Positions 7,370 to 36,555 of a stretch of DNA of 36,635 nucleotides are shown here, in pieces. Source of the DNA: Acutalibacteraceae bacterium (lineage in GTDB: Bacteria > Bacillota > Clostridia > Oscillospirales > Acutalibacteraceae). The stretch's first letter is position 1, and each line of letters starts with the position of its first letter. Under the pieces are notes generated by a model. It searched no databases. It saw only the letters and a list, made by a program, of their open reading frames with translations, and was not told the DNA's origin. A program made the translations under genes and the position numbers. The stretch spans positions 1 to 36,635 of the forward strand of contig JAZQMR010000037.1 in the NCBI GenBank assembly GCA_045543505.1. Direction: 5' to 3'.

Positions 7370-7376
7370 GAAAAGT

Positions 7377-7410
7377 CCCCTCACCAATCCAGGTGAGGGG
7401 AATATTATTT
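7377..7410. terminator. Bidirectional terminator between the convergent spoVT and repeat-protein genes
   Basis: Stem CCCCTCACC (7377-7385) / GGTGAGGGG (7392-7400), with AAAAG on the left and AATATTATTTTT on the right. Confidence 0.7.
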
Positions 7411-8805
7411 TTAGCCACCTTGAATGAAAAAGCGCTGCACAAAATCAATAAGGTCTTGCCCGGACAAGCCAAAGCGATTCATTGCCCACTCAAGCATATT
7501 TTTAAGGCGAGGGTTGTTAAAGTTCAAGTTGCGCTGTTGGACACTTGCTTCTTGCGGTTCAGTTGTGTTGGAATTGAAGATTTGCTCCAAACCACTTGCT
7601 GCTCGCTCTGATGCTCGGTTAAAGTTGTCCTCTTCAATTGCAAAATCAATAGTGTCAACACGTGTTTCACGCATAAGAAACTCGTCGCCGTTGCGTGCAC
7701 ACACGGGTACTCTTGGCGCTACAGTGAGGCTATTTGCTGCTTGGACTGTCACATCACGCGTAGGTCTATCCTCAGTAAAACCTGAAAACTCTATATCACC
7801 GCCATCAATAATGCCCGCGCCAGTACCATCGTGTGTAAAAAGATTGGAAGAGGTCGAGTAAACTGTAGAACGCTCGCCTGCGTTAATTCTATTCGCACCC
7901 TCAGCCGTTATGGCCCCATCGCCATACACCCGCGTGTTACCATTGCCATCCACCTGCGTGCGACCGTTACCGACCACCTGCGTGTCACCGTCGCCGCGCA
8001 CCAGCGTACCACCATTGCCATCCACCCGCGTGTTACCATTGCCATCCACCTGCGTGCGACCGTTACCGACCACCCGCGTGTCACCAGCGCCTACCACATA
8101 CGTGAAACCGGCCCCGTTCACTCGCGTGTCACCATTGCCATCCACCCGCGTGCGACCGTTGCCATTCACCTGCGTGAAACCGTCGCCGCGCACCAGCGTA
8201 CCACCAGTGCCATCCACATGTGTGTTACCGTTGCCATTCACCCGCGTGCAACCGTTGCCATCCACCTGCGTGAAACCGTCGCCGAACACCCGCGTGACAC
8301 CATTGCCATCCACCCGTGTGTTACCGTTGCCATTCACCCGCGTGCGACCGTTGCCATCCACCTGCGTGAAACCGTCGCCGCACACCAGCGTACTACCAGT
8401 GCCATCCACCTGCGTGAAACCGTCGCCGCACACCAGCGTACTACCAGTGCCATCCACCTGTGTGTCACCGTTTCCTTTCACCCGCGTGTGACCGTTGCCA
8501 TTCACCTGCGTGGCACCGTTGCCGCGCACCAGCGTATCACCAGCACCATCCACTTGCGTGAAACCGTTGCCAGTCACCGTAGTTTCACCATCACCATACA
8601 CTTGCGTGAAACCGTCGCCAATAACATATGTGTCGTCGTTGTCGATGATCATGCGATCAGGTTGCGCACTAACAGTATTCGTGTAACTGCCATAAATTTG
8701 ACTCGATAATCCTACTGCCGCCACCAGCCCCAGTGCAACCAGCTTTTTAGCTGCGCTGTTGCAGACTGACCATATGTCCTCGTGAATGAACTTGTTTTTT
8801 TGCAT
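7411..8805 (-). CDS. Secreted octapeptide-repeat protein (predicted beta-solenoid), 464 aa, unknown function
   Basis: ATG at 8805 is preceded by GGGGGA. Signal peptide KKLVALGLVAAVGLSS...VSA|QP. Then 30 uninterrupted 8-residue repeats G-x-G-x-T-x-V-x, followed by a non-repetitive C-terminal domain of about 160 aa. The ORF-track start at 8862 adds 19 aa with no RBS. Confidence 0.75.
   Translation of the reverse strand: MQKNKFIHEDIWSVCNSAAKKLVALGLVAAVGLSSQIYGSYTNTVSAQPDRMIIDNDDTYVIGDGFTQVYGDGETTVTGNGFTQVDGAGDTLVRGNGATQVNGNGHTRVKGNGDTQVDGTGSTLVCGDGFTQVDGTGSTLVCGDGFTQVDGNGRTRVNGNGNTRVDGNGVTRVFGDGFTQVDGNGCTRVNGNGNTHVDGTGGTLVRGDGFTQVNGNGRTRVDGNGDTRVNGAGFTYVVGAGDTRVVGNGRTQVDGNGNTRVDGNGGTLVRGDGDTQVVGNGRTQVDGNGNTRVYGDGAITAEGANRINAGERSTVYSTSSNLFTHDGTGAGIIDGGDIEFSGFTEDRPTRDVTVQAANSLTVAPRVPVCARNGDEFLMRETRVDTIDFAIEEDNFNRASERAASGLEQIFNSNTTEPQEASVQQRNLNFNNPRLKNMLEWAMNRFGLSGQDLIDFVQRFFIQGG
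7900..8619 (-). repeat. Coding tandem repeat: 30 in-phase 24-bp units with 48-bp and 96-bp higher-order copies
   Basis: 24-nt periodicity over 720 nt with no indels. Exact 48-bp x2 tandem at 8354-8401 / 8402-8449. 7927-7989 matches 8023-8085 at 62 of 63 positions (96-nt offset). Confidence 0.9.
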
Positions 8806-8930
8806 GTATGCATTCCCCCTTTTTTGTTTAGTTTCAATATCGATGATATCACAAATCAACATCTAAGTCAAGCGTATTTTAAATCTTATGGCAAATATAT
8901 TTACAAAAGAAGATACCTAAGCTCAAGCAA

Positions 8931-13933: not shown

Positions 13934-13942
13934 GTGGCAAAA

Positions 13943-14923
13943 ATGGCAAAAGTTAGTGTGATTGTGCCGGTCTACAAGGTCGAGAAATATCTCGAGACCT
14001 GCGTGAAGTCCTTGTTGGAGCAGACGTTGACCGACATAGAGATAATTTTAGTGGACGATGGCTCGCCGGATGCGTGCGGTCAGATGTGCGATGACTTTGC
14101 AGAGAACGACCCTCGAGTGAAGGTAATTCACAAGGAAAACGGCGGTCTCAGCGATGCCCGAAATGCTGGCATAACCGCGGCGACAAGCCAATATATTGGT
14201 TTTGTGGACAGCGATGACTACGTCGCGCCCGACATGTACGCGACCCTCTACGGCGGCATCACGCGGCACGGCGCCGACGTGGCTATTTGCGGCCTTTATG
14301 ACTGCTATAAGACCAAGAAAATTCCGCAATTTGCTGGCAGTGAACGTTTAATCCTCGACAACGAAGAGGCCTTGGGGTTGGCGCTGGAGGGCATTAAATT
14401 TTCTGTCAACGCGGTGAACAAGCTCTATAAGAAGTCACTCTTCGACGAGATAAAATTCCCACAAGGCAAGCTCTCGGAAGATGCCTTCACGATTCCGCAA
14501 ATACTAGCGCGTGCGCGGACGGTGATCTTTGATTCGCGGCCGAAATATTTCTACGTGCATAGGGGAGAGAGCATCACGACGTCGGCCTTCAAGGCGCAGG
14601 ATTTCAACGTCGTCGAAGCGTACGAGCAGAATCTGCGGCTGGTCGAGGCGCGCTTCCCGGGGCTGCGGCGGCAGGCCGAGTTTCGGCTCTTGTGGGCGCA
14701 CATGTACGTGTTCGACAAGATGCTCATGAGCGAGAGTTTTACCGATGTTGAGAGCTACAAGCGAGTGTTGACGCAACTGCGACGGCAAACATTTAAGGTT
14801 TTGACGAACCCAATTTTCTCGCTAAAAAGAAAGGCCGTAAGCCTAATTTTGCTGGCAAGTCCAGGCCTTTATGCACGGCTGTTGCGCCGCCAAAAACAGA
14901 AAAATTTGGCGTTGCATGAGTGA
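13943..14923 (+). CDS. Family 2 glycosyltransferase
   Basis: KVSVIVPVYKVEKYLETCVKSLLEQT...EIILVDDGSPD...FVDSDD. ATG 13943 follows AGGTGG (13932-13937); GTG 13934 is an alternative. The stop TGA 14921-14923 lies in the MITE target duplication. Confidence 0.85.
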   Translation: MAKVSVIVPVYKVEKYLETCVKSLLEQTLTDIEIILVDDGSPDACGQMCDDFAENDPRVKVIHKENGGLSDARNAGITAATSQYIGFVDSDDYVAPDMYATLYGGITRHGADVAICGLYDCYKTKKIPQFAGSERLILDNEEALGLALEGIKFSVNAVNKLYKKSLFDEIKFPQGKLSEDAFTIPQILARARTVIFDSRPKYFYVHRGESITTSAFKAQDFNVVEAYEQNLRLVEARFPGLRRQAEFRLLWAHMYVFDKMLMSESFTDVESYKRVLTQLRRQTFKVLTNPIFSLKRKAVSLILLASPGLYARLLRRQKQKNLALHE

Positions 14924-14929
14924 CTATTT

Positions 14930-15107
14930 CGGGAATGCCCCAAGTGAGCATTTTCCATTGGCTTAGCTGCCAACCTGAGCCGCGAGGCCAAAGAAAATAT
15001 TATTTTCTTTGTGGCCCAGCGCTCAATGTGTTGAGCGCTGGGCTGGCCGAAGACCCACAGGGCCTTCGGCTCCTCGCGGCCGCTAGATGCGCGATTAGGG
15101 CACTACC
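14930..15107 (-). mobile_element. MITE copy 2 (inverted relative to copy 1), with a perfect 8-bp target-site duplication
   Basis: Ends GGGAATGCCCCAAGTGAGCAT (14931-) and ...ATGCGCGATTAGGGCACTACC (-15107). The core has the same three hairpins as the other copies. GACTATTT occurs at 14922-14929 and again at 15108-15115. Confidence 0.85.
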
Positions 15108-15138
15108 GACTATTTTTACAAGAAGGATTGTTTTTTAC

Positions 15139-16578
15139 GTGAGTTTGAAAAGATTTTTATTGAGAGAAGGAACGTACGAAGCCCTGCGCAAAGCCTACAT
15201 CACGGCCTTCATCGCGGCGGTTCTCACGCGAGTTTTGCTGCCGTTCGCCCTCTGCGAGACGCAATTTGTGAACTCGCTGGTTTTTGCCGTTGTGGCCATG
15301 TTTGGCGCGGCCGTTGTATGCCTGGATTTGTTCACGAGACGCGTTTTTCTTACGGCGAAAAATGTAGTCTGGTTGGCCTTGTTTTTAGCGATATGCACAC
15401 TTTCGAGCGTGGTGAACGCCAAGTACGGCGTCATCGGGAATGTTCGAAACTTGGTTTGGTTGGCGATATCGTTTTTTCTTTTGTATCCAATTGACCCGAC
15501 GAGAACGCTCGACAGCGTGAAAAAGGAGATTAAATACGTCGGCAACATCTTGATTACGGTGTGGTTTTTGGCTTGCGGTGCGTCGCTGGCGATGTTCGCA
15601 CTGCAGGTGGGCTATTACGTTGATGTTTATCCGGATTCATTCGCGCGCATGGGATTCATTGAGGGGCGACTTTTCGGCGTGTTTGAGGATCCAAACTATG
15701 CGGCAGTCGTTGCGATGATTGCGATTATTTACTCGATTTTCAACTTCAAAAATGCTAGAAAAAAGTGGTTAAAGGCGTTTTACGTTTGCGGCATTTGCGT
15801 AGATTTTTGCTACATAGTCTTGTCGGGCTCGCGTACAACAGAGGTTGCGGCGATTATTGTGGTATTTTTAGCCGCGTACTTTTTGCTATTAAAGAAATAT
15901 AACAAAGTGAAATCGAATGCCTTTATTAGGCAAGTTACACTGATTTTAACGGCAATCTTGTGCAGCGCGGCGCTGATCTTTAGCTTTATATTTGCAAGGA
16001 AGGCGCTGTCGTATTTGCCAGGGGTCGTTGGCGCGCCGTTTAAGTCGGTGAGCGTGGTGGAGCAAAAGCCTCGAAGGCACATCGACATCACGCGGGATGA
16101 CGTGAGCAACACGGCGGATATCTCGAATTGCAGGTTCAAAATTTGGCTGAGCGCGCTCGAGGTGTTTAAAAGCAAGCCGCTGCTGGGGACATCTCCACGA
16201 AACATGAGAGCATACGCGAAAGCGGCTTTCCCTAACGGCTTCATTGCTCAACGCTCTTACGCGGTCCACAATGCGTACCTCGATGTGCTAACCTCGACGG
16301 GGCTTTTGGGCGCCGTGGTAATGTTCATATTTTTGGTGAAATATTTGATAAGTGTATTTCAATTCCTCTTCGTCAATTTGAATAACAAAAATTATGGTTT
16401 AGTTTTATTCAGCTTTATAAACGTAGCAACAGTGGCGATCTCGGCGTTTTTCTTGTCGGAGATATTTTTTGTTAACACAATTGGCGTTTTAACGTTTTGG
16501 TTAAATTTAGGATACTCGCATTATTTTATTAAAGATGGCACAAACTCACAAAAGGCCAGTGATATCCTATGGAAATGA
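15139..16578 (+). CDS. wzy: O-antigen polymerase/ligase-family polytopic membrane protein (Wzy-like)
   Basis: About 10-12 TM segments and a Wzy_C-like region (LSGSRTTEVAAI...AVHNAYLDVLTSTGLLGAV). I set the start at GTG 15139, after AGAAGGA (15121-15127). The 73 aa that the ORF track adds upstream are a read-through of the MITE. Confidence 0.75.
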   Translation: MSLKRFLLREGTYEALRKAYITAFIAAVLTRVLLPFALCETQFVNSLVFAVVAMFGAAVVCLDLFTRRVFLTAKNVVWLALFLAICTLSSVVNAKYGVIGNVRNLVWLAISFFLLYPIDPTRTLDSVKKEIKYVGNILITVWFLACGASLAMFALQVGYYVDVYPDSFARMGFIEGRLFGVFEDPNYAAVVAMIAIIYSIFNFKNARKKWLKAFYVCGICVDFCYIVLSGSRTTEVAAIIVVFLAAYFLLLKKYNKVKSNAFIRQVTLILTAILCSAALIFSFIFARKALSYLPGVVGAPFKSVSVVEQKPRRHIDITRDDVSNTADISNCRFKIWLSALEVFKSKPLLGTSPRNMRAYAKAAFPNGFIAQRSYAVHNAYLDVLTSTGLLGAVVMFIFLVKYLISVFQFLFVNLNNKNYGLVLFSFINVATVAISAFFLSEIFFVNTIGVLTFWLNLGYSHYFIKDGTNSQKASDILWK

Positions 16579-17602: not shown

Positions 17603-19141
17603 ATGAGAACAAAAAATTCGATTATTAACACACTAGTGGGATTGGGTTCGTATGCGATTTTGCTGTTGGGACCGGTAGTTCTAAGCCCAATCGTAGCGAG
17701 CCTTGGCAGCGAAATTCTCGGCATACAAAAGACCTTTATGGATACGGTAGCGCTTTTGAATATAATCGAGCTGGGAATTAGCTTTGGCGTAATATACAAG
17801 CTGTACAAGCCGATTGCTGAGAATGACACCGAGAAAATCGCTATTCTGCTGAATTTTTACAAGAATACATTCAAAGTAATCGCTTCGATTTTATTGGCAT
17901 TGGGCTTATTGACGGCGATAATTATCCCGAAACTTGCACCTGCACACGACGCGAACAAATTTACTGATAGATGGCTCAGCGCGATGTTTTTGCTGTATTT
18001 GGCCGACACTTTGGCGACGTATCTGTTTGGCCACAAGCGCGCGATGCTGATTGCCGACCAGCGCAATTACCTGGTGAGTATTAGCAAAACCGGCTGCCAG
18101 CTGATGATGTTCATCTTGCAATTCGTTGCAGTGATGCACTTTCGGTCGTTCGAGTTGTATGTAATTGCGCGCTTGAGTTGCACCTTGCTCGACAGCATTT
18201 TGGTGCACACAATGTACAAAATTAGATATAAAAATATAGACCTACGGACGAAAAAAAAGCTCGAGAAAGGCGAGCGCGACGATTTATTTAGAAATTTGGG
18301 TGCGCTTTTCTACCACAAGATCGGCTACCAGAGCCTGGCATCGGGCTCGACGCTGATCATCACCAGCAACCTCGGCGAGGCGGTCACCGGCATGTACTAC
18401 CCGTACACGCTAATTACGAACGGCCTGATGAGCATCACCGACCAGGTTTTTAACGCGATTTTGACAAGTTTTGGCAACCTCCTCGTGAAGGCGACGCAAG
18501 GCCAAGTACATAACATTTACAAGAAAATTTTCTTCCTCAACCACGTAATTTACTCGTTTTTCTCGGTGTCGCTGTTCTGCCTCGTCGGGCCGTTCATCCG
18601 CCTGTGGATGGGCGACGCGTTCCTATTCCCGATGTCGACTCTGATTTTAATCGTGGTAAATTTCTACACATTCGGCATGAGAAAATCGATAACGATGGTA
18701 AAAAATAGCGCCGGACTTTATCGCCCAGACAGACATTTCGCGCTCATCGAGGCGGCCCTTAACATAGGTTTGGCGATGCTTTTAGTCGGAGACTTTGGCC
18801 TCAACGGTGTGCTTATCGCGAACATTATTAGCTCGCTGTGCATCCCCTTTTGGACCCAGCCCTACGTCGTTTACAAGAATGTTTTCAACCGATCCGTTGT
18901 TGACTATTACAAAAAGCACGCGATTTACGCCGCCATTACGCTGCTATCGACCGTTTTGACCTATTTTTTGTGTTCACTCTCAAGTGCAACTGGATTTATG
19001 AGGCTTATTTCAAACGGCCTGGTTTGCCTTGTTGTCCCGAACGCAATTAACGCGCTCATCTTCCGCAAGACCGACGAGTATCAGTACTTGCGCGGCATCG
19101 CGAGGAATGTATTTAAGCAGTTTAGGATGAGAAATAGTTAA
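17603..19141 (+). CDS. wzx: Polysaccharide flippase (MOP/Wzx family)
   Basis: 512 aa, about 12-14 TM segments; typical size and position for Wzx at the end of a Wzy-dependent locus. Confidence 0.75.
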   Translation: MRTKNSIINTLVGLGSYAILLLGPVVLSPIVASLGSEILGIQKTFMDTVALLNIIELGISFGVIYKLYKPIAENDTEKIAILLNFYKNTFKVIASILLALGLLTAIIIPKLAPAHDANKFTDRWLSAMFLLYLADTLATYLFGHKRAMLIADQRNYLVSISKTGCQLMMFILQFVAVMHFRSFELYVIARLSCTLLDSILVHTMYKIRYKNIDLRTKKKLEKGERDDLFRNLGALFYHKIGYQSLASGSTLIITSNLGEAVTGMYYPYTLITNGLMSITDQVFNAILTSFGNLLVKATQGQVHNIYKKIFFLNHVIYSFFSVSLFCLVGPFIRLWMGDAFLFPMSTLILIVVNFYTFGMRKSITMVKNSAGLYRPDRHFALIEAALNIGLAMLLVGDFGLNGVLIANIISSLCIPFWTQPYVVYKNVFNRSVVDYYKKHAIYAAITLLSTVLTYFLCSLSSATGFMRLISNGLVCLVVPNAINALIFRKTDEYQYLRGIARNVFKQFRMRNS

Positions 19142-22164: not shown

Positions 22165-22185
22165 TTATTTTTAAATGTTATCAGC

Positions 22186-22906: not shown

Positions 22907-22914
22907 TCAATCAA

Positions 22915-23859: not shown

Positions 23860-23871
23860 AGTCCTGTCTCC

Positions 23872-26128: not shown

Positions 26129-27533
26129 AATGCTCCTCCAAACTTGGATACAAAACTTTCCCGGATTCATTTCGAGGAATTTCTTCAATAAACTTTACTT
26201 TAAATGCGGAGTGATTTATCCCTGTCTTCTGCGAAATAAAATGCAAAATCTCGTCAACTTTATTTTGAGAGTCCACAAATATATACATACAGTCATCCAT
26301 TCCGCAACAAGCACAGTCGAGCTCTTTAAATTCAGTTTTTATTAATTGCTCTGTCTCATCCAAGTTAACGCGATTTCCAAATATCTTCAAAAACCGTTTT
26401 TTTCTTCCAACAATGTAGTAAAAACCTTCCTCATCAAATTTTGCCATATCACCGGTATGCAAAACACCATTTCTCTCGTCGCCCTTAGCCAGGTCTTCCC
26501 TACTCTCGGCATAGCCCAAAGTAACATTGTCTCCCTTATATACTAGTTCCCCGGCTACATTCGGCTGAGTAATTTTTTGACCGTCTTCCCCTTCGAGCGA
26601 AAACTCTCCGCCTGGAACAGCTATACCTATGCTGCCTGCCTTTTCCAACGATTTCTCCTGCGGTAAATACGACATTCTTGCGGTTGCCTCAGTTTGGCCG
26701 TACATCACCACGAAATTTTTATCGTTATCTAAGGCGTACTTTGCGAATTTTTCATGCAGAGCTAACGGCAATCTTCCTCCAGCTTGAGTCATCGTCTTTA
26801 AATACGGTAAATTCATTCTGAAAAAACGCAATTTATCTAACATCTCATAGGTATATGGGACTCCTCCGAATGACGTCACCTTATATTCTTTTAGCTGAGT
26901 CCAGAAATCTTTTTGCATTAGCGTTTTTTCAGTCAAAACAATTGTAGCACCGACTAGCAAATGGCTATTAATAATTGACAATCCATACGTGTAATTCATC
27001 GGTAAAGTCGTAATTGCACTTTCAATTGATGTTAAATCCAAGTACTTCGCAATCGCATCCATATTGGACTGCACATTAACATAACTTTGCCTAACTAACT
27101 TAAAGCTTCCCGTTGAGCCAGATGTTGTCAACAAAAGCGCTAAATCCTCATGCAAACGCTTATTAACATGAAGATTCGTTTTTACTAAGCAATATTCACA
27201 AGAGGAGTAAACCACATCGTATCCACAAAAATTTGCTACTTTGCTTGACGGCAACCACAAATATTCTGGACTATAAGTTTCTACTAAATTTTTCAAAAGT
27301 TTGATGTCTAAATTTGCATCTACCATTAGCGGCACCACGCGGTTATTCAAGAACGTTATGTACCCAACTAAAGAACCTAACGTATTTGAACACAAATTGA
27401 ACACAAGGCTCCTACTAGGAAGATACCCCTTCAGTTGTTCTGAAAGGGTACAAATCTCGTCGTAAGAAAATTCTTTGCCAGACTCCTCTATGACGGCAAT
27501 GTTCTCTTTAAATTTATTTAAGTTCCACATCAT
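26121..27533 (-). CDS. ANL-superfamily adenylating enzyme (acyl-ACP / acyl-CoA ligase)
   Basis: Core motifs LLTTSGSTGSFK, YGQTE, HTGD, GRKKRFLKIFGNRV, PRNESGK. The start (ATG 27533 or 27530) overlaps the ACP gene end by about 20 nt. Confidence 0.85.
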   Translation of the reverse strand: MMWNLNKFKENIAVIEESGKEFSYDEICTLSEQLKGYLPSRSLVFNLCSNTLGSLVGYITFLNNRVVPLMVDANLDIKLLKNLVETYSPEYLWLPSSKVANFCGYDVVYSSCEYCLVKTNLHVNKRLHEDLALLLTTSGSTGSFKLVRQSYVNVQSNMDAIAKYLDLTSIESAITTLPMNYTYGLSIINSHLLVGATIVLTEKTLMQKDFWTQLKEYKVTSFGGVPYTYEMLDKLRFFRMNLPYLKTMTQAGGRLPLALHEKFAKYALDNDKNFVVMYGQTEATARMSYLPQEKSLEKAGSIGIAVPGGEFSLEGEDGQKITQPNVAGELVYKGDNVTLGYAESREDLAKGDERNGVLHTGDMAKFDEEGFYYIVGRKKRFLKIFGNRVNLDETEQLIKTEFKELDCACCGMDDCMYIFVDSQNKVDEILHFISQKTGINHSAFKVKFIEEIPRNESGKVLYPSLEEHYD

Positions 27534-27753
27534 ACTTAGCAAGAATCTCCTTACCTTTTTCAAACGAGCTAAAATCTATAATGTCATCCGTGTCCATCAT
27601 TATGTTGAAGGTTTCCTCCAAGGCTGCAATCAAACTCATATGGCCAACAGAATCCCACTCACCAATAGCCTGATACTCCAGCCCTTCTGTTTGCTCCTTC
27701 GTAATGTTAAATGTCTCCTCGAATGCTTTTGTGTATTTCTCTAAGTTTGTCAT
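27514..27753 (-). CDS. Acyl carrier protein
   Basis: 79 aa, acidic, with a phosphopantetheine attachment motif GEWDSVGHMSLI. Confidence 0.8.
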   Translation of the reverse strand: MTNLEKYTKAFEETFNITKEQTEGLEYQAIGEWDSVGHMSLIAALEETFNIMMDTDDIIDFSSFEKGKEILAKYDVELK

Positions 27754-27783
27754 GATAAAGTTTACCTCTCTATATTTTAGTGT

Positions 27784-28530
27784 TTATATTATTGCGCTTC
27801 CATCGACGCCCAATATTTGTCCAGTAATATAACTTGACATATCAGACGCTAGAAAAACGCAAGCGTTTGCGACATCTTCTGGCGTTCCTATTCTAGCCAT
27901 TCTTATATTTTCTATTTTTTCTTTCTGCTGTGTCTCTGCTACAGCTCGAAACAAATCGGTGTCTATAACGCCAGGCGCAATTGCATTTACTCTTATGTTA
28001 TATGGCGCAAGTTCCTTAGCCGCTGTTTTTGTTAGCGATATAATAGCACCTTTTGAGGACGAATAAGCCACCTGTCCCCTGTTTCCCTCTACACCAACTA
28101 TACTGGATATGTTTATTATACTACCAAACTTTTGTCGCATCATAATCTTTGCGGAAAATTGAAGCAACTTAATCGGCGCAAAAACATTAACCTTGAAAGT
28201 TTCCTCCACCAAGCCATCAGATATCATTCCGATGAGAGCGTCTTTCATCATCCCCGCGTTATTAACCAACGCATCTAGCTTTAATTTTTGATTTTGGATT
28301 TCTCGGCAGGCCCTATTTATAGAACCGCTATCTTTTAAGTCAAAATGTACCGGCCAAATCTCTACATTGAAGTTCTGCGCAACTTCGCTAATCATATTCT
28401 CGAACTCAACACTTTTGCACCTTGCATGTGCCCATATGTTTGCACCATTTCTTGCGCATTCTACAAGCATAGCTTTTCCTATGCCCCTGTTAGTTCCTGT
28501 GATAAAAATATTTTTACCTTTTAACAGCAT
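27784..28530 (-). CDS. Short-chain dehydrogenase/reductase, FabG-like
   Basis: ITGTNRGIGKA, NNAG, and the catalytic YSSSKGA (YxxxK) with an upstream Ser. Confidence 0.88.
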   Translation of the reverse strand: MLLKGKNIFITGTNRGIGKAMLVECARNGANIWAHARCKSVEFENMISEVAQNFNVEIWPVHFDLKDSGSINRACREIQNQKLKLDALVNNAGMMKDALIGMISDGLVEETFKVNVFAPIKLLQFSAKIMMRQKFGSIINISSIVGVEGNRGQVAYSSSKGAIISLTKTAAKELAPYNIRVNAIAPGVIDTDLFRAVAETQQKEKIENIRMARIGTPEDVANACVFLASDMSSYITGQILGVDGSAII

Positions 28531-28545
28531 TATGTTTTTATCTCC

Positions 28546-29271
28546 TTAAGAGCAATGTTTAATAAATACATGGCAAACATCTTTAGCATTAAATCCCAAC
28601 GAAAGATGAACATGCAAAGTGTTTACGTTATTTAAGGAAATGTAAGTAGACATTTTTTTATAATTTCGTCTTATGGCTTCTTTTAAAGGCTTTTCTAAAG
28701 TACTTAACCCTAAACCAGAATTTAAGAAGTCTCTATACATTCCGACTAAAAACGGATAGCATGTGCTGTTGCCAATATCTTTAAATGTGAAGAACCCTAC
28801 GGACTTATCTTTATGTGTTATTTTAAAGGCCTCCGTACCTTTGTCAAGCTCATCTGATATCCAATTTATATACCTGTTCGCAGCTTGCTCGTGAGTAAAA
28901 TGAGGATCTATATAAATTCTATCTGTGCTAAATACACCTTTTTTTATTTCGCAGAAAAGCTCCTCGATGTCATCTTTTTCCATCATAGAGTAAGATAAAC
29001 TATCCATAATTCGTTGCTGAATTGGGTTTAGTTTTATGTCTTTCAAGTCGTGCGTTAGATTTATGCTCGATTCGACATACGTGTATCCCATTTCCTGCAG
29101 CAAAAACATAACATCAAATTTGCCGCTCGGAACCTTTACTACAGTATATTGGCTTTCATTTTGAGGTAACTCTTTTCTTATTTTTTCTATAGTGTCATCT
29201 TTCTCGATTTTTATTTCCCGACAATCTACGCCTAGATTTCGCTTTTCCCATATTGCATCAACAACTTTCAA
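28546..29271 (-). CDS. Putative N-acyltransferase (GNAT-like C-terminal half; WecD-like size and position)
   Basis: 241 aa. The C-terminal part (FFTFKDIGNS..FLVGMYRDFLNSGLGLSTLEK..EAIRRNYKKMSTYISLNNVNTLHVHLSLGFN) looks like a GNAT fold. The assignment rests mostly on context and is weak. Confidence 0.45.
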   Translation of the reverse strand: MKVVDAIWEKRNLGVDCREIKIEKDDTIEKIRKELPQNESQYTVVKVPSGKFDVMFLLQEMGYTYVESSINLTHDLKDIKLNPIQQRIMDSLSYSMMEKDDIEELFCEIKKGVFSTDRIYIDPHFTHEQAANRYINWISDELDKGTEAFKITHKDKSVGFFTFKDIGNSTCYPFLVGMYRDFLNSGLGLSTLEKPLKEAIRRNYKKMSTYISLNNVNTLHVHLSLGFNAKDVCHVFIKHCS

Positions 29272-29282
29272 AAGATATCACC

Positions 29283-30785
29283 TCAATTTTTAATATATAA
29301 ACACCCAAAATCAGTTAAACCTTGTTGCTCATATCCCTCTATGGGTTGGTCGGTATTAAGCAACAAATATTTGCTTTTTAAATTCTCTAGCGGTCTCTCA
29401 TACAACCACTGGATTCCTATACCCGGATGTAAGTTGGACCACAGCTCAAAATTAAACCAATTGTCTGTTGCTAACGTATTTTCAAAAGGATTTTCTGCGT
29501 CCTCATTATATTTTATTACAGTTTGAATTAATTGAAAGTCTCTCTTTTCGACTTTGATAAAACGATTAACAATCTCTGGAGAGTTAGGCTGAGGAAACAT
29601 TTTTAAATTAAATATAAAAAATACACCAAAAAGAAAAGAAAAAAATTTAAATGAAAAAAATCTTTTATGAATAACTAAATTAACTACTGATATCCACAAA
29701 ATAGGAGCCAATGTCCGATATTCTCGAAAAGAATGCACATCATAAATAAGCAAAATAATAACAAGAGGAAAAAACAATAAACAAAATTGGATAACATAAA
29801 AAGCATCCGGCTTATCTTTGAGAGACAACGACATGAAGTTTTTCCTGCTTTTTTTGAATGCTATTTTTATAAAGATTAAGCCAAAATATATCGTTAATAT
29901 CATCAAACAAATCAGCCTAAAACTAACTTCTATTTTACTTGCAGAATTTAAGCTAAACAGATTTTTCACATTATTTATAAAATTAAAACGAATCCCATCT
30001 AACATAGCTTTTACATTTGATGTATGCATAACACTATACAAGACACCAAATGGATACGGCGCAGTAAATAAAGACACAACAAAATAAAGTCCGCCAGAAT
30101 ACAAAATCCAAAATAGAAATAACTTAGCAAATTTTCTACTGAAATGAAAGTCACTTAAAGCAAATACCGGAGCTAAAAGCAAAACAATGTATATAATTCT
30201 ATAGAAACAGCAAATCGTTCCAAAAATCAGCGTTAAGATTAAAAATACTTTTTTTGTTCTGCCATCAGAGACGCAAACTTTATAGAATGAAGCAAAAAAT
30301 AAAGATAACAATCCATAATTTAACATTTCAGTCATAGCCGTTAGCGCGAACCACATAGCCGGAGTAAAAAATAAATATACTCCTAAAAAACAAAAGGTTT
30401 GAGCGGCACTTGGTCTAAGAATAAAAACCACACCTAAAAAACAAATCGCTGTAAAAAGCATATTAGCAAGTACAATTCCGTTTTCTGGCCAATTTAAAAC
30501 TTTTGCAAAAGGAAAATAAAGTAATGCCGGAAAAAATCCATGCGTGCTAAAACACCCTATTTTAGGAGTTAATTCATTTATACCAATGTATCCAGTCTTA
30601 AAGCCATAATGCACAAAAGAATAGATTTCCCTCCAAAAACCAATCTCATCACTCCAAATTGGCCGACCAGCAAATGCATTTTGCTTTAAAATAAAAGATA
30701 ATATAGCTAACAAAATTACTGGAGATAAGATAAAACAAATATAAGAAAAGTGTTTTAAAATTTTACGGCTATTTAAATTTAACAT
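29283..30785 (-). CDS. Large polytopic membrane protein, GT-C (ArnT/PMT_2)-like, with a C-terminal extracytoplasmic domain
   Basis: About 500 aa from ATG 30785 (TAATG overlap with the upstream stop), about 11-12 TM segments. Acidic motif IWSDEIGFWRE in the first external loop and a soluble tail of about 110 aa. Confidence 0.55.
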   Translation of the reverse strand: MLNLNSRKILKHFSYICFILSPVILLAILSFILKQNAFAGRPIWSDEIGFWREIYSFVHYGFKTGYIGINELTPKIGCFSTHGFFPALLYFPFAKVLNWPENGIVLANMLFTAICFLGVVFILRPSAAQTFCFLGVYLFFTPAMWFALTAMTEMLNYGLLSLFFASFYKVCVSDGRTKKVFLILTLIFGTICCFYRIIYIVLLLAPVFALSDFHFSRKFAKLFLFWILYSGGLYFVVSLFTAPYPFGVLYSVMHTSNVKAMLDGIRFNFINNVKNLFSLNSASKIEVSFRLICLMILTIYFGLIFIKIAFKKSRKNFMSLSLKDKPDAFYVIQFCLLFFPLVIILLIYDVHSFREYRTLAPILWISVVNLVIHKRFFSFKFFSFLFGVFFIFNLKMFPQPNSPEIVNRFIKVEKRDFQLIQTVIKYNEDAENPFENTLATDNWFNFELWSNLHPGIGIQWLYERPLENLKSKYLLLNTDQPIEGYEQQGLTDFGCLYIKN

Positions 30786-31948
30786 TAATAATATGAACCT
30801 CCGTATAACAATACAATATAATAGCTTACCCAAGAAAGTACATGCATACCTAAAACTGCAGATATCACCGTTAAACGATATACAGTTGTTGTCTTAATTT
30901 TACTTAAAAGTTTATACAGAGAAACAACAAACAATACGCCAACTGCAAACTGAGCTCCCCAACCAAAATTACCATCCATCAGCCGCACTCCTGTTTCATA
31001 CAAAAGGGCATAAATAGCAATATTAAAGCTACCTAGCAACCAACCAAATCCGTAGATCTTATCTTTTATTAAATCTCTGTAATTAAAAATTAAAACAACT
31101 AATGGAAAAGCAACGGATAACAACAATGCTGTATATGGATTTTTGGTATATATACTCCAGACCTTAAAAAGTCCAAAAGCTAATTTACTGTTATCGTCAA
31201 AAAGCTGACTTTTTTGCCACAATATTAAAGCCAATGCAGGAAAAACCGTTGTTCCAAAAACTAAATAATTAAAAATATTTTTGCCTTTACCATTTATGAA
31301 GTCAAAAATCATAATGATTAACATACAAAAAGCAAACGCAAGAGTAAAGCTAGGTTTAAACCAAGTAGCTAAAAACAATGATACTGAAAAGCCAAGCCAT
31401 TCTAAAAAAGAAATTTTTCTAGCATGATACTTTCTAAACAACTTAAAAAATAGCAATAACGATAGTAATGCAAATGGCTTCATAGCAATATATGTTGAGT
31501 TATGGTATAGATTAAAAGTCAACATTCCTAAGTAGCGATGTTCGTTTATGACCGGGATGTATATCGGCATGGACATATTACAGATTAAAGCAGCTAGATA
31601 CAGTTTTTCGTTGCTTATTTTTCCATGCACCAAATGTTTTAACAATATAAAGGTGAAATATATACTAACCAAGGAAAACAACGTTAAAGTAAGAGAAATT
31701 AGAAAGCATCTATGAGGAAGCCTCCAAAGAAATCCTAAAATTACATACATTAAGCTATAGGCACTTCCTGGTTGCAAACCGGCACGTATATGCGCAGGTA
31801 AATCTGATAATTTTACGTTGACAACGCCATCATATTTAGCTTGTTCTCTAAATAAAAAAATTAAACTTAAAGCGTAAACGATAGTTATAATCGCAGATAA
31901 AAACACATTAATTGAAAAATATTTTCTTTTCGTCATTGCTTTCGTCAC
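30785..31948 (-). CDS. Polytopic membrane protein of unknown family (possible glycosyltransferase or polymerase)
   Basis: 387 aa, about 10-11 TM segments, translationally overlapped on both sides. No motif I can assign. Start at ATG 31948 or 31936. Confidence 0.5.
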   Translation of the reverse strand: MTKAMTKRKYFSINVFLSAIITIVYALSLIFLFREQAKYDGVVNVKLSDLPAHIRAGLQPGSAYSLMYVILGFLWRLPHRCFLISLTLTLFSLVSIYFTFILLKHLVHGKISNEKLYLAALICNMSMPIYIPVINEHRYLGMLTFNLYHNSTYIAMKPFALLSLLLFFKLFRKYHARKISFLEWLGFSVSLFLATWFKPSFTLAFAFCMLIIMIFDFINGKGKNIFNYLVFGTTVFPALALILWQKSQLFDDNSKLAFGLFKVWSIYTKNPYTALLLSVAFPLVVLIFNYRDLIKDKIYGFGWLLGSFNIAIYALLYETGVRLMDGNFGWGAQFAVGVLFVVSLYKLLSKIKTTTVYRLTVISAVLGMHVLSWVSYYIVLLYGGSYY

Positions 31949-32891
31949 ACTCCGTTTTTTTCTTCAGGTTTATACCGCTTTTCACAACATATTGCGGGGC
32001 ATTATTTAAGTTAATAAAAATCCGGCCTACGTACTCACCTATCATACCAATAACCATCAGCGTTAAACCGCTAAAAAATGTCAACAGTGAAACAATGCTA
32101 CTATAGCCGATAGCAATATCAGGCGTAACAAACAGCTTATTTATAACAGTATACAAGCCAAAAATAAACCCAATAAAAGCAAATATTACGCCGGCGATGG
32201 ATGTAATTCTCAGCGGCTTTACCGAAAAAGACGTGAAACCATTGAGCCAAAGGGCTAAAAGCTTCTTTAAGCTATAATTGCTCTTTCCCTCCTGACGCTC
32301 ATTCTCTTCCATCTTAACGTTCGCGATATTAGAGGTTGTCCTTAGCAACAAGCCAGCTATATACGGATAACAATTTTGATATTTTATCATCTCGTCAACG
32401 ACAAACCTCTTAATAGCACCAAAATTGCTAAGGCTTAATCTTTTGGGTTTGCCTATCAAGTGCTCAGCCATTATGTCATTCACTTTGCTGCCAAAGTTCT
32501 TAAAACGAGACTGCTTTTTTATGCCATAGTCAGCAATTGAAACATCAAAACCGTTCCTTAGCGGCCCTATCAAATCAAAAACCTTTTCAGCAGGACATTG
32601 CCCGTCATCATCAAGATATATAACGATATCTCCGCTGGAGTAGCGAAATCCCGCCATCAACGCTGCGTGTTGGCCAAAGTTTTTTGCAAAATTTATAGCA
32701 ATTATATTTTCATCACATCGCGCTAACTGCTCTATCACAAGGCTTGTCCCATCCTTAGAAAAATCATTGACCAGAATAATCTCATAGCTAAAGTTTTCAT
32801 CGCTAGCAACTGCCGTTTTTATCGAGTTAACCACATCAGTTATGGTCTTTTCGGAGTTATAACACGGTATGACAAACGATAATTTGCTCAC
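31908..32891 (-). CDS. Polyprenyl-phosphate glycosyltransferase, GT2, ArnC/GtrB/CsbB type
   Basis: KLSFVIPCYNSEKTI...ILVNDFSKDGT...YLDDDGQ, plus two C-terminal TM helices (ITSIAGVIFAFIGFIFGLY, IVSLLTFFSGLTLMVIGMIGEY). The 327-aa size is typical of this subfamily. GTG start at 32891. Confidence 0.8.
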   Translation of the reverse strand: MSKLSFVIPCYNSEKTITDVVNSIKTAVASDENFSYEIILVNDFSKDGTSLVIEQLARCDENIIAINFAKNFGQHAALMAGFRYSSGDIVIYLDDDGQCPAEKVFDLIGPLRNGFDVSIADYGIKKQSRFKNFGSKVNDIMAEHLIGKPKRLSLSNFGAIKRFVVDEMIKYQNCYPYIAGLLLRTTSNIANVKMEENERQEGKSNYSLKKLLALWLNGFTSFSVKPLRITSIAGVIFAFIGFIFGLYTVINKLFVTPDIAIGYSSIVSLLTFFSGLTLMVIGMIGEYVGRIFINLNNAPQYVVKSGINLKKKTECDESNDEKKIFFN

Positions 32892-32935
32892 AATAGCCCA
32901 TCCAATCTTATTTGATAAAAAATCTTGAATTTTGC

Positions 32936-33114
32936 GGGAGTCCCCTAAGCGAGCATCTGGCAGCCGCGAGGCGCCGAATGCCCGCAGGGCCTTCGGCCAG
33001 CCCAGCGCTCAACTTTGTTGAGCGCTGGGCCACAAAGAAAATAATATTTTCTTTGGCCTCGCGGCCCGGCTGCAGCAGCTAATTCAAGTGGGAATGCTCA
33101 CTTAGGGCACTTCT
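32936..33114 (+). mobile_element. MITE copy 4, perfect 8-bp target duplication, inserted into the 3' end of the aminotransferase gene
   Basis: Ends GGGAGTCCCCTAAGCGAGCAT and ATGCTCACTTAGGGCACTTCT. The core is nearly identical to copy 1. AATTTTGC occurs at 32928-32935 and again at 33115-33122. Confidence 0.85.
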
Positions 33115-34224
33115 AATTTTGCTAATTATAAACTCCACATCCGAAGGTTTTATGCCGTAGTAAAGTGGCAACCTTATGATACGTTCGCTTTCTTTGGTCG
33201 TAAATTTATCTTCGCCGTTAAACCTACAATATTTCAGGCCTGCAGGCGCAGAATGAAGTGGAATATAATGGAAAACTGCACATATTCCATTGTCCTTCAA
33301 GTAAGAAAGCAGCCTCGTGCGAACATCAAGATGTTGCACTTTAATGTAAAACATGTGTGCGTTATGAAGGCAACCTTCTGGGATGAAAGGCAGCTCTAAA
33401 AGGCCTGCCTCCGCCAAACTCTTTAGTCCCTCGTAATATAATTTCCAGGTTGCCATACGATTATCATAAATTTTCTCAGCCATCTCGAGTTGCGCCCACA
33501 AGCAAGCCGCATTTATGTCGCTCGGCAAGTATGAAGAGCCTTTATTTACCCAGGTATATTTGTCAACTTGACCTCTAAAGAACTTGCTCCGATCCGTACC
33601 CTTTTCCCGGATTATCTCGGCCAACTCAGCGTCCTTTTGGTCTTTTAAGAGGAGCGCTCCCCCCTCGCCCATGCTATAATTTTTTGTCTCATGGAAGCTG
33701 TAGCACCCATAGTCGCCAATTGTCCCGAGCGCTTGCCCCTTATAGTAACTCATTACACCTTGAGCGGCATCCTCAACTACTTTTAAGTTGTATTTTTGAG
33801 CGAGCTCCATTATTTTATTCATCTCGCACGACACACCCGCATAATGGACTGGCACGATAGCCTTTGTTTTCGGAGTTATCGCGGCTTCAATTAGATTCTC
33901 ATCGATGTTCATGGTATCAGGCCTAATGTCAACAAAAACGACCCTTGCGCCGCGCAGCACAAAGGCATTTGCCGTGGACACAAAAGTATACGACGGCATT
34001 ATCACTTCATCGCCCGGCTGTATGTCGCACAACATAGCTGCCATTTCCAGCGCGCTCGTGCAAGAAGTGGTCAACAGCGCTCTTGTCGCACCGGTTTTCT
34101 CCTCAAACCAACGGTTACATAGTTTTGTAAATTCTCCGTCACCGCAAACTTTCTTATTGTCGTAGGCCTTTTTTATATAGTCCAGTTCAGTGCCAATAAA
34201 GGGTGGTTCATTAAAGTTAATCAT
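33079..34224 (-). CDS. wecE: dTDP-4-keto-6-deoxyhexose 4-aminotransferase, DegT/WecE family
   Basis: Collinear with E. coli WecE almost throughout (FNEPPFIGTELDY...CGDGEFT...IQPGDEVIMPSYTFVSTANAFVLRGA..VFVDIRPDTMNIDE...VPVHYAGV.CEM...FHETKNY...IREKGT.RS.FFRGQVDKYTW...NAHMFYIK...FHYIPLH..PAG...TTKESER..RLPL). The last 11 codons and the stop lie inside the MITE. Confidence 0.9.
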   Translation of the reverse strand: MINFNEPPFIGTELDYIKKAYDNKKVCGDGEFTKLCNRWFEEKTGATRALLTTSCTSALEMAAMLCDIQPGDEVIMPSYTFVSTANAFVLRGARVVFVDIRPDTMNIDENLIEAAITPKTKAIVPVHYAGVSCEMNKIMELAQKYNLKVVEDAAQGVMSYYKGQALGTIGDYGCYSFHETKNYSMGEGGALLLKDQKDAELAEIIREKGTDRSKFFRGQVDKYTWVNKGSSYLPSDINAACLWAQLEMAEKIYDNRMATWKLYYEGLKSLAEAGLLELPFIPEGCLHNAHMFYIKVQHLDVRTRLLSYLKDNGICAVFHYIPLHSAPAGLKYCRFNGEDKFTTKESERIIRLPLYYGIKPSDVEFIISKIRSALSEHSHLN

Positions 34225-34246
34225 ACTTGCTCCTCTACGTGAACTT

Positions 34247-35602
34247 TTATGATGGTAAATAAACTAAGATGTACATATCAACTACTATAAAAGCTAAAAC
34301 CGAACATAGTGCGCCAACAAAAGCATACTGCTGATGCCTTGGTAGCAATTTCTTTGTAAAAAACTCGAACCCTTTAGCAACAAAATAAGCAATTGCCGGA
34401 AGGGCTGGGTAACAATATCGCCCTTGTGCTTGAAAATCCACAGTGTAGCTGTTGTAAATACTCAGCGCCACAGTAACAATTATACAGACCATAAAGCTTA
34501 CTATTATACTAGTCATAAATTTGTCCTTAAAGAGGCTTTTGTGACAAATTTTCTCAACAGCGATACAAATCAAACCTATGATAGCGACAGCAAAAAACAT
34601 TTTATAGAAAAGATATATCCTATCCGGCAAAGGAAATTGCAGATATCCAAAGACGCCAATAAAACTATGATACGTTCCTCTTAACCAACCCATTTCGCCA
34701 AAAAGCATCTGAAATAAACTTATTCCTTGCTTTGCAACGGTTACCCTGTTGGCTGGTTTTAAATAATCTAGTCCATATAAATTTCCATACATACGAGAGG
34801 TCTTAAACCCTAATAAATCCCCGTACACAATTAAATGTCTGACAAAAAAGTAACCTGTAATCAAAAAGACGATACAAAACATAAAGAAAATATATTTAAA
34901 GAGCAACCGATAGTCATTGCAGCGCTCTTTAATAAAGAAAGCAACAAGGAAAACAATAGCGCTACATAGAATCCACGCGTAGCTATTGTAGTAAGTTACA
35001 GCACATATACCAATTCCTATTGCCATTGTGCTACAAATTTTAAAATCTAAGCCTTTCGTCGTGCATAGAGCCCATGAATACATAATTATGGCTACACCAA
35101 GCAAGGCAAGTATGTCATTGTTTATGTAGCTTGCAAGAAAGGCAAACTGCGGAATAAATGCGATTAGTGAAATCATTATCCAACGAGCAGGGGAGTCAAA
35201 AAATATTTTTGAAGTTTTAATGATAAAACATATGATTCCAGTTGCCGCAAACACACTTACCATACGAGCTGACAATAAAATGTAAAACTCATTAGAGGTA
35301 AATAAGCTTGCCAATTTCATAAAAACATAATTTAGCACATGAAGTAATAAGTTAGGCATATGAGCATAAGAAAAGCCCCAGATTGAGTTTGTCGTCTCTT
35401 GCCCAACGGGCAGTCTGTTATTGTTAAACATAAACAGCGACACATCATAGCGCATATACTCATCCGGAGCATAATTAAATGGCTTTTTTATAGCCCACAA
35501 GAAATAAAACGAGAAACACACTATACAAAACAATATTTCGTACCAAGCAAGACCACATAGTTTTATTTTTCTCAGCCTTTGGCTCAACAACATCAGCTCC
35601 AA
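34247..35602 (-). CDS. Polytopic membrane protein, GT-C (PMT_2/DUF2142)-like
   Basis: 451 aa, about 11-12 TM segments. Motif APDEYMRYD lies in the first external loop. TTG 35602 or ATG 35593 start. First gene of the operon. Confidence 0.55.
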   Translation of the reverse strand: MELMLLSQRLRKIKLCGLAWYEILFCIVCFSFYFLWAIKKPFNYAPDEYMRYDVSLFMFNNNRLPVGQETTNSIWGFSYAHMPNLLLHVLNYVFMKLASLFTSNEFYILLSARMVSVFAATGIICFIIKTSKIFFDSPARWIMISLIAFIPQFAFLASYINNDILALLGVAIIMYSWALCTTKGLDFKICSTMAIGIGICAVTYYNSYAWILCSAIVFLVAFFIKERCNDYRLLFKYIFFMFCIVFLITGYFFVRHLIVYGDLLGFKTSRMYGNLYGLDYLKPANRVTVAKQGISLFQMLFGEMGWLRGTYHSFIGVFGYLQFPLPDRIYLFYKMFFAVAIIGLICIAVEKICHKSLFKDKFMTSIIVSFMVCIIVTVALSIYNSYTVDFQAQGRYCYPALPAIAYFVAKGFEFFTKKLLPRHQQYAFVGALCSVLAFIVVDMYILVYLPS

Positions 35603-35661: not shown

Positions 35662-35789
35662 TTCTCTCGATTAAATTTACAGCGCACTTCTACCCTGCTT
35701 ATATCAATAGGCTCTTTAAAAGAAACAATTATTTGCGGGTCTCTTCTGAAGAAGAACACGCCATTTTTTATTTTTATACCATTTGTTTT

Positions 35790-36555
35790 TAGGGAGTGCC
35801 CTATAGAAGCATTTGTGATATACTAGATTTATGAAATGTAAAGCATGTAATGACGAAACAAAACAAATAAAAACTGGAAAAACAAAGGCGGGAACCAAAA
35901 AGTACAAATGCAAAAAATGCGGAAAATATTACACCCAGGAAAGCAAAAAGAGAGGCCATAGCGAAGAAACAAAGAATCAGGCGATAAAATTATATTTGGA
36001 GGGAAATAGTAGCCGAGCAGTCGGCCGAATTCTGGGAATATGGAAAAATATTGAGCCCAAAGAGACTCTAAATGCGCGGGTTAACGTCATCTAAATGGAC
36101 GAGCTCTATAGTTTCGTCGAGAGAAAAAAAAGATTTTACGCGATAACGCTGGTCAGTAGAGATACACGGGAAATCGTAGGTTTTGACATAGCTTTCGACA
36201 AAAGTCGAGAGCGAATTCAGCGCTTAGTTGATCGTTACGTGAAGGCGTGTCAGTACTACTCTGACGCTTATTCGGCGTATTCAGAAGTGTGCTATGAAGG
36301 CGCTCATACTTCGCTAAAAAATAAAAGTCAAACTTACACCGTTGAAGGTGTAAACTTTGACTTGCGACACTACATTCCTTCTTTACGCCGAAAATCCAAA
36401 TGCTTTTTTCGATCACTTGAAACAGCTAAAGCTGTCTTCAAAATTTTTGTTAAAGCCTTCAATCTATTTGCTCGTGCTAAAAAGAATTTTCCTCACCTGA
36501 AATCTGCTTTTTGTCTCTCGAGTTTTATTTAAATGCTCAACCAGGGCACTCCCTA
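35790..36555 (+). mobile_element. IS1-family insertion sequence with both inverted repeats present
   Basis: TAGGGAGTGCCCT at 35790-35802 and its inverse AGGGCACTCCCTA at 36543-36555. 766 bp, coding for a zinc-finger/HTH domain plus an IS1-type DDE domain. No flanking target duplication. Confidence 0.85.
35831..36532 (+). pseudogene. IS1-family transposase interrupted by one in-frame TAA (36092-36094)
   Basis: ORFs 35831-36094 and 36095-36532 are in the same frame (both coordinates are 2 mod 3). ...NARVNVI*MDELYSF aligns with ...SVVIELDEMWHF of the IS at 8931, so the stop sits where a Glu codon (GAA) is expected. Confidence 0.75.

Follow-up and report, generated by a model that had tools for sequence, protein, structure and literature searches.

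The locus lies on the minus strand of a 36,635-nucleotide window (the whole stretch of DNA that was analysed) and consists of a sugar aminotransferase gene and a family-2 glycosyltransferase (GT2) gene, with a MITE between direct repeats reaching into the end of the aminotransferase reading frame. Two further copies of the MITE and an insertion sequence lie elsewhere in the window.

33079-34224, minus strand: WecE-type (DegT/DnrJ/EryC1) sugar aminotransferase gene in its present form, 381 aa (from the ORF list)
33115-33122: gene-proximal copy of the target-site duplication, falling in codons S-K-I (plus-strand sequence AATTTTGC, coding-strand sequence GCAAAATT)
33082-33114, minus strand: element-encoded tail RSALSEHSHLN, 11 codons, inside MITE copy 4
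33079-33081, minus strand: TAG stop of the aminotransferase, inside MITE copy 4
32936-33114: MITE copy 4, 179 bp, with imperfect TIRs and strong self-pairing
32928-32935: distal copy of the target-site duplication, AATTTTGC
32892-32927, minus strand: 36-nt relic comprising the native 3' end and the spacer, CAAGATTTTTTATCAAATAAGATTGGATGGGCTATT
32917-32922: T6 run (A6 on the plus strand) within the relic
32908-32910, minus strand: native TAA, now out of frame, within the relic
31908-32891, minus strand: GT2 gene (ArnC/GtrB-like, polyprenyl-phosphate type) that starts at a GTG of its own and encodes 327 aa
35792-36553, plus strand: IS1-family insertion sequence, 762 bp, with InsA-like and InsB-like ORFs
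6554-6732, plus strand: MITE copy 1, 179 bp, flanked by CTATTTGC/TTATTTGT
14930-15107, minus strand: MITE copy 2, 178 bp, flanked by perfect repeats of GACTATTT

The aminotransferase matches Pfam PF01041 (E 2.7e-87) and passes the cut-offs of two family models over residues 1-374, the curated NCBIfam TIGR02379 ECA_wecE (637 bits, cut-off 435) and NF008687 (630 bits, cut-off 375), so it is predicted to be a WecE-type dTDP-4-amino-4,6-dideoxyhexose transaminase. Of its 381 residues, the first 370 are native and the element encodes the last 11 (371-381). The GT2 product matches Pfam PF00535, and its NCBIfam matches to ArnC and PgfS both lie under the cut-offs, with the ArnC equivalog NF007986 at 177 bits versus the 529 needed; by these cut-offs it is not ArnC but only a GT2 of that broad type. 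Its start, M-x-K-L-S-F-V-I-P-C-Y-N, holds the same position in relatives, and an exact look-up of the window's GT2 found no further contig. Between the window and contig L081, which both bear the element, the aminotransferase has a dN/dS of 0.10 and the GT2 one of 0.16, and purifying selection on both genes has persisted after the insertion.

The window contains the MITE three times in full and once in degenerate form. Copy 4 sits between perfect 8-bp repeats, and the last 11 codons and the TAG of the WecE-like gene lie inside it, as the initial annotation had described. Its TIRs are complementary at 17 of 22 terminal nucleotides, its ends pair in the predicted fold, and the 251-nt stretch containing it (32880-33130) folds as RNA at -116.8 kcal/mol (z = -7.8); its G+C content is 59%, versus 43% for the window. 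The element has no transposase gene (178-179 bp, longest overlapping ORF 56 aa), and in this orientation all three of its frames run into stop codons within 12 codons. An Rfam search returned no family match anywhere in the window, and a scan of the element for promoters and terminators detected nothing resembling either on the sense strand.

As the initial annotation had supposed, the 8-bp repeat proved to be a genuine target duplication rather than a coincidence, because repeats of the same length also flank copy 2 (perfect, as at copy 4) and copy 1 (6/8), and because the target is single and unoccupied in the close relative L100, where it reads AGCAAAATTCAAGA. The site is empty throughout L100-L102, and in L081 the gene-proximal copy of the duplication reads GCAAAATC, a 7/8 match. 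By its size, its TIRs, its duplication, its presence at multiple unrelated sites and its empty site in a relative, the element is a bacterial MITE. A scan of metagenome_contigs with the MITE core returned nine loci; a full-length copy (85% identical) is present in L094 alone, where it adjoins the contig end and shows no discernible duplication, and the element is absent from all 80 Lachnospiraceae/Clostridia genome loci examined. Copy 2 was also considered as an in-frame 62-codon insertion in a Wzy-like gene, which it probably is not, because homologues of that gene begin at about residue 8-12 past the element, near a usable GTG (15139) with GAAGGA upstream.

The IS1-family insertion sequence in the window is a candidate source, in trans, of the transposase that the MITE lacks. 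It scores 27.5 bits against Pfam DDE_Tnp_IS1 (cut-off 24.1), and NCBIfam NF033558 (IS1 family) matches both of its ORFs, each of which, being only part of a split gene, scores short of the cut-off set for the whole protein. The ends of the insertion sequence (GGGAGTGCCCT...GAGCATT) and of the MITE (GGGAGTCCCCT / AGAAGTGCCCTAAGTGAGCATT) have their terminal 11-12 nt in common, whereas the insertion sequence has no counterpart to the 150-bp interior of the MITE, which consists of G+C-rich hairpins. Duplications of 8-9 bp are typical of the IS1 family. A composite transposon bounded by IS1-family elements is reported to have an 8-bp duplication (PMC6382973). The shared ends suggest that the MITE may have been mobilised by an IS1-family transposase.

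Deletion of 187 nt from the window (the element plus one repeat copy) produces a 709-aa reading frame, ...IISKI-QDFLSNKIGWAI-V-SKLSFVIPCYNS..., that enters the GT2 without a stop, reproducing the observation from which the initial annotation had proposed that the pre-insertion allele encoded an aminotransferase-GT2 fusion. The length of one T-run governs this result: after excision, a T5 run ends at TGA, a T7 run ends at TAA, and only T6 stays open. Because one of three possible lengths is thus open, an in-frame, stop-free read-through is statistically unremarkable. Judged from the relic, the native TAA (32908-32910) appears to be still present, placed out of frame by a homopolymer 1 nt shorter (T6 versus T7), and the initial annotation's own caveat that the original stop might have been lost in some other way proved apt.

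Six further contigs, drawn from several samples, carry the element at this site (L081, L103-L107), and two of them, L081 and L107, retain an intact junction and have T7 where the window has T6. L081 is 96.7% identical to the window over 2248 aligned nt (~2.2 kb), with the T-run as the sole gap, and L107 is an independent assembly. Excision of the element from L081 yields a stand-alone 376-aa aminotransferase ending ...IISKIQDFFIK-TAA, followed by a 27-nt spacer and then the GTG of the GT2. Five other contigs have the element tail, the same or substituted (HFPLS); L103-L106 encode an element-tailed aminotransferase on contigs that end inside the element and so stand outside the T-run count, which comes from two element-bearing lineages, the window (T6) and L081/L107 (T7). 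Since just these two lineages give counts, parsimony alone leaves the ancestral run length undecided; a change from T7 to T6 is nevertheless the likely direction, because the T7 reading matches the tails and stop of relatives. An ancestral T5 (QDFYQIRLDGLL-TGA, with a GTGA overlap) was dropped in view of the T7 runs of L081 and L107 and the FF-type tails of relatives.

Element-free syntenic relatives end in KKFF*, QKFFI*, NEFFCK* or KKFFKG*, and the C-terminal tail of the aminotransferase varies among relatives in both length and sequence. At the DNA level, the T7 remnant of L081 (GATTTTTTTATCAAATAA, versus the 3' end GAATTTTTTTGTAAATAA of L088) matches the native 3' end and stop of L088 and L085, neither of which has an acetyltransferase gene. 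In L100, with 98.4% amino-acid identity in the aminotransferase, that gene has its own TAA and is followed by a whole PseH-like acetyltransferase gene and then by the GT2. The aminotransferase and GT2 are separate genes with a stop between them in L082-L089, in L100 and at 80 genome loci; none of the 80 genome relatives is fused, and all stop 0-8 residues past residue 373-377. No fusion was found among the 120 best GT2 relatives, and none among the best matches of either half in a 5.8-billion-protein database, where the sole apparent fusion, P0002 (769 aa), is a frameshift in a nanopore contig that keeps the native C-terminus LPVYYEITPGEQERVVDAIGAYL in frame +2. An exact 23-mer spanning the empty junction had 0 matches in metagenome_contigs, and the search found no element-free allele of the window's own junction.

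We consider it about 85% probable that the MITE inserted into a stand-alone aminotransferase gene and swapped its tail and stop, that the two genes were separate before this, and that a T was lost from the run later. A 179-bp non-autonomous MITE would have entered the 8-bp target GCAAAATT at codons 368-370, six codons before the stop, in an element-free parent whose junction is expected to have read ...AGCAAAATTCAAGATTTTTTTATCAAATAAGATTGG with a TAA stop. The last six residues, QDFFIK, would have given way to the eleven element-encoded residues and TAG because of the stops in all three frames of the element, and the swap was probably tolerated because the tail is naturally variable. The GT2 would have kept its own GTG, and the gap separating it from the upstream stop would have lengthened from 27 nt to 187 nt, forming a strongly folded RNA. 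Because the sense strand of the gap carries no terminator, one transcript most likely still covers both genes. The native TAA would now stand 18 nt beyond the element, with T6 in place of T7 between them. Loss of the single T would have been neutral, because this stretch is no longer translated after the insertion, and that loss alone would explain the apparent read-through into the GT2 upon excision.

The most durable of the alternatives, itself rather unlikely, is that T6 is an assembly or sequencing error in the window contig and that the true sequence is T7. Homopolymers are error-prone, and the T-run is the sole indel relative to L081; however, a homopolymer of 6-7 bases is usually right in short-read assemblies, and a genuine neutral slip, in DNA that is not translated, would be just as simple.

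It is also possible, though we think it unlikely, that no fusion existed and that the element entered when the two genes were still separated by an acetyltransferase gene, as in L100, with a deletion of ~520 nt following later, so that the present junction never translated as a tail. The window and L100 are similar as far as 33115 and again from 32917 on, and the window spacer TTGGATGGGCTATTGTGA resembles the 3' end of the L100 acetyltransferase gene (TGGGATGGATTATTGTGA), including the GTGA stop/start overlap; the junction was therefore rearranged at some point. However, were the T7 remnant a mere deletion scar, its match to the native ends of L088 and L085 would be a coincidence, and we saw no allele with both element and acetyltransferase gene among the contigs found, those of L103-L106 breaking inside the element where they cannot show one.

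The proposal that in the immediate ancestor, already with T6, aminotransferase and GT2 formed one 709-aa fusion, which the MITE split into two genes, is very improbable and largely refuted. The uninterrupted frame of the excised window is what it would predict, and an ancestral T6 is compatible with parsimony across two lineages. In contrast, excised L081 and L107 give a separate 376-aa enzyme with an FF-type tail and a TAA where relatives stop, the two genes are kept apart by an ordinary stop in the empty-site L100 and in every syntenic relative (an outcome that the initial annotation had itself named in advance as speaking against a fusion), 80 of 80 genome relatives are unfused, and the protein database yields no fused close homologue among the best matches beyond the frameshifted P0002. 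A last variant, in which T6 preceded the insertion, the rearrangement that removed the acetyltransferase gene briefly made an in-frame 709-aa fusion and the stop of the MITE then restored two genes, would mean that the element repaired the operon rather than damaged it, and is highly doubtful.

MITE insertion of the type we favour here is a known kind of event and an ordinary one. Rickettsia palindromic elements, reportedly the subject of work by Abergel et al. in 2006, are palindromic repeats tolerated inside protein-coding genes; they lie in frame within the protein, whereas MITE copy 4 ends the protein after 11 residues. In Coxiella burnetii, QMITE2 is a 150-190-bp MITE with highly structured RNA and variable 7-11-nt direct repeats at the 3' end of enhC, where it supplies the C-terminal residues and a following stop in one strain and an indel moves the protein end in another (PMC5896051). 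The window's element resembles it in placing a structured RNA at a gene's 3' end and providing C-terminal residues, but the element family and host are unrelated (Coxiella is a gammaproteobacterium), QMITE2 adds 33 residues versus 11 here, and nothing ties it to an IS1-family parent. MITEAba12 of Acinetobacter is IS-derived, with TIRs, a target duplication, a co-resident parent IS and stops in every frame, and it adds up to 19 element-encoded residues to host proteins (PMC6382973). The window's MITE shares the TIRs, the target duplication, the stops in every frame and a parent-type IS in the same window; MITEAba12 differs in its length (113 bp), its 9-bp duplication, its parent (ISAba12), its weak secondary structure and its outward promoter, none having been found on the sense strand of the window's MITE.

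The gene order is that of glycan-modification operons in which a WecE/ArnB-type aminotransferase adjoins an ArnC/GtrB-type polyprenyl-phosphate GT2 gene, and in all relatives examined the two remain distinct genes, separated by a short spacer or overlapping by 4 nt. Once the element is discounted, the organisation is the same as in such operons, with no bifunctional fusion. The locus thus holds no new bifunctional enzyme, and the main value of the analysis is that a tempting reading is closed. It also urges caution, as a reconstruction of the pre-insertion allele from one sequence can be wrong, because DNA that an insertion has left untranslated drifts, homopolymers above all. The MITE, linked to IS1, appears to be undescribed and belongs to a gut Clostridia lineage (Acutalibacteraceae-like), and its insertion is common to lineages ~3% diverged, making the locus a clean, datable case of a MITE replacing the C-terminal tail of a protein.

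Two genes meet at the insertion site:

33079-34224, minus strand: DegT/WecE-type aminotransferase ORF, 381 aa (ORF list, domain search)
31908-32891, minus strand: family-2 glycosyltransferase (GT2) ORF, 327 aa, GTG start (ORF list, domain search)

The 179-nt element (32936-33114, 59% G+C versus 43% for the window) has AATTTTGC directly on both sides (32928-32935 and 33115-33122) and contains the aminotransferase's final 11 codons (RSALSEHSHLN) and TAG. A 187-nt deletion of the element plus one repeat copy merges the aminotransferase and GT2 frames into a single 709-aa ORF. These observations of the initial annotation were all reproduced in the sequence, and its interpretation is partly supported: the ancestral aminotransferase-GT2 fusion that it proposed is contradicted by empty-site homologues, which have a normal stop between the genes, and we consider a fusion ancestor very improbable (roughly 4%).

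Contig L081 shares with the window both the element, at an identical site, and the 381-aa aminotransferase; its GT2 is 92% identical and its DNA 96.7% identical over 2248 nt. The sole indel in this alignment lies in the relic of the native gene end just past the element, where L081 has seven T (T7) versus six in the window (T6). T7 also occurs in L107, which was assembled independently from a different sample and begins within the element. Excision of the element and one repeat from L081 gives a 376-aa protein (...IISKIQDFFIK-TAA), a 27-nt spacer and then the GT2 GTG. The native TAA persists in the window (32908-32910, minus strand), but the T-run (32917-32922), one base short of that in the sister sequences, puts it out of frame. 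Since the relic has been untranslated from the time of insertion, this change would be neutral; alternatively, T6 could be an assembly error. A T5 run produces a TGA overlapping the GT2 start, T7 produces the native TAA, and only T6 stays open, so the read-through is a one-in-three accident and no trace of history. As the T-run is countable in only two element-bearing lineages, the direction of change rests on T7 matching the tails and stop of relatives.

Element-free syntenic relatives, ordered aminotransferase, GT2, two large membrane proteins, 241-aa protein and short-chain dehydrogenase, encode separate aminotransferases of 374-376 aa that end in KKFF, QKFFI, NEFFCK, KKFFKG or KTFYN before the stop. 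In two of these loci, L082 and L085, the GT2 is preceded by a ribosome-binding site within a 33-35-nt spacer. A third, L088, reads GAATTTTTTTGTAAATAA at the position where L081 has GATTTTTTTATCAAATAA, indicating homology of the T7 reading, with its TAA, to a native gene end. L088 also has a 400-nt, very A+T-rich spacer without an ORF (2601-3000) between aminotransferase and GT2, compared to 33-35 nt in the other relatives.

The closest empty site encodes P0243 (379 aa), a member of the 90%-identity cluster of the window aminotransferase that lacks the element tail and shares 98.4% amino-acid identity with the native part of the window protein. Its contigs (L100-L102) have the empty target AGCAAAATTCAAGAC and their own stop (QDFYKNGEC-TAA), followed by a PseH-like acetyltransferase gene whose TGA overlaps the GT2 GTG. 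This GNAT gene (L100 2819-3315, also in L101 and L102) is broken into two 80-aa ORFs, reflecting either a pseudogene or an assembly error. It is wholly absent from the window and L081, suggesting that the cluster's sugar may not be N-acetylated by a PseH-like route. Similarity between the spacer ahead of the GT2 start, TTGGATGGGCTATTGTGA, and the acetyltransferase 3' end in L100, TGGGATGGATTATTGTGA, argues that the junction underwent deletion or cassette exchange. Neither order of this rearrangement and the insertion needs a fusion.

More distant relatives agree. Queried with the 709-aa reconstructed protein, the database returned stand-alone aminotransferases of ~390 aa plus a single 769-aa "fusion", P0002 (contig L090, 2001-4310; annotated with DegT and GT2 domains). 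We rejected P0002 as a frameshift artefact: it derives from a nanopore-type contig, homology to the aminotransferase is lost ~35 residues short of that domain's end, and the missing native C-terminus (LPVYYEITPGEQERVVDAIGAYL...) lies in another frame. The aminotransferase ends 0-8 residues past query residue 373-377 in 80 of 80 genome loci encoding relatives (68-74% identity, mostly Lachnospiraceae), and in none does it run into a GT2. The best 120 GT2 relatives span 237-386 aa (most 307-333), none near the ~700 aa of a fusion.

The element is a MITE, present in the window as three full copies (6554-6732, 14930-15107, 32936-33114) and one degenerate copy (about 19125-19310). The 8-bp repeat flanking copy 2, GACTATTT, is perfect and that of copy 1 matches at 6/8 positions, so this family generates 8-bp target duplications. 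The MITE termini GGGAGTCCCCTAAGCGAGCAT / AGAAGTGCCCTAAGTGAGCATT match the ends (GGGAGTGCCCTATAGAAGCAT / GGGAGTGCCCTGGTTGAGCATT) of a 762-bp insertion sequence (35792-36553), both ORFs of which match IS1-family models, and we infer that an IS1-family transposase most likely mobilised the MITE. Relics of further IS1-family copies are a solo end at 4771-4826 (88% identical to 35789-35847) and an inverted 209-nt internal fragment at 9688-9896 (86% identical to 36140-36348). The 251-nt stretch 32880-33130, including the element, folds into very stable RNA (-116.8 kcal/mol, z = -7.8). The element matches no Rfam family, no terminator-like or promoter-like site was found in it on the operon sense strand, and, read in the aminotransferase orientation, it has stops in all frames within 12 codons.

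Gene 3' ends are abutted by copies 2 and 3 and interrupted by copy 4. Copy 3 (19125-19310) keeps the central hairpins, has different ends and starts where ORF 17603..19141 terminates, at its stop codon; copy 2 (region 14920-15140) sits right at the GTGA stop/start overlap of GT2 gene 13934..14923. Copy 2 and its duplication total 186 nt (62 codons), stop-free in the frame of the listed 552-aa Wzy_C-like ORF (14920..16578) passing through it. Wzy_C-like homologues begin about 8-12 residues past copy 2, where a GTG (15139) follows an upstream GAAGGA; the part of the ORF read through copy 2 is probably a spurious extension at the 5' end.

The window derives from a spore-forming Clostridia source (tilS, ftsH and spoVT at 1-7400), its FtsH sharing 88% identity with the Clostridium sp. 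CAG:557 protein and 87% with that of an Acutalibacteraceae MAG. The glycan-modification cluster (about 22-36 kb; 22000-35600) has 31-45% G+C, much lower than the remainder of the window (about 50-55%). Its gene content is mosaic from sample to sample: L081 and L107 lack the two membrane proteins after the GT2. Unusually, amino-sugar genes are paired in it with acyl-activation genes: it encodes the WecE-type aminotransferase and the GT2, along with a 241-aa protein, a short-chain dehydrogenase, an AMP-binding enzyme and LuxE-like and LuxC-like proteins. Its three large multi-pass membrane proteins (451, 387 and 516 aa) have no Pfam match. Elsewhere, a 24-nt (8-codon) unit is repeated in tandem about 35 times (7820-8671) within a 483-aa minus-strand ORF (7411..8862) that weakly matches the phage T4 gp5 C-terminal beta-helix domain. 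Another type of mobile element (20799-22020) has nested inverted repeats with 48-nt arms (20799/21973) and perfect 54-nt arms (20928/21848), with a related fragment at 9918-10193.

MITEs overlapping the 3' ends of genes, to which they contribute C-terminal residues and stops, are known (PMC5896051, PMC6382973), and the window case belongs to this documented kind. In Coxiella, QMITE2 lies in enhC, whose protein end is altered by a strain-specific indel (PMC5896051); MITEAba12 of Acinetobacter carries stops in every frame and forms fusions of up to 19 residues (PMC6382973). The window's MITE differs from both in host and in its link to an IS1-family element. Its insertion swapped six native C-terminal residues for 11 element-encoded ones, in a tail that varies naturally among relatives and whose element-encoded form differs between samples (HSHLN, HFPLS), and lengthened the stretch between the preceding stop and the GT2 start, previously 27 nt, to 187 nt of structured RNA. 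The window and L081 diverged entirely after the insertion they share, with dN/dS values of 0.10 (aminotransferase) and 0.16 (GT2) over that divergence, indicating that both genes have stayed functional, as separate genes, since the insertion.
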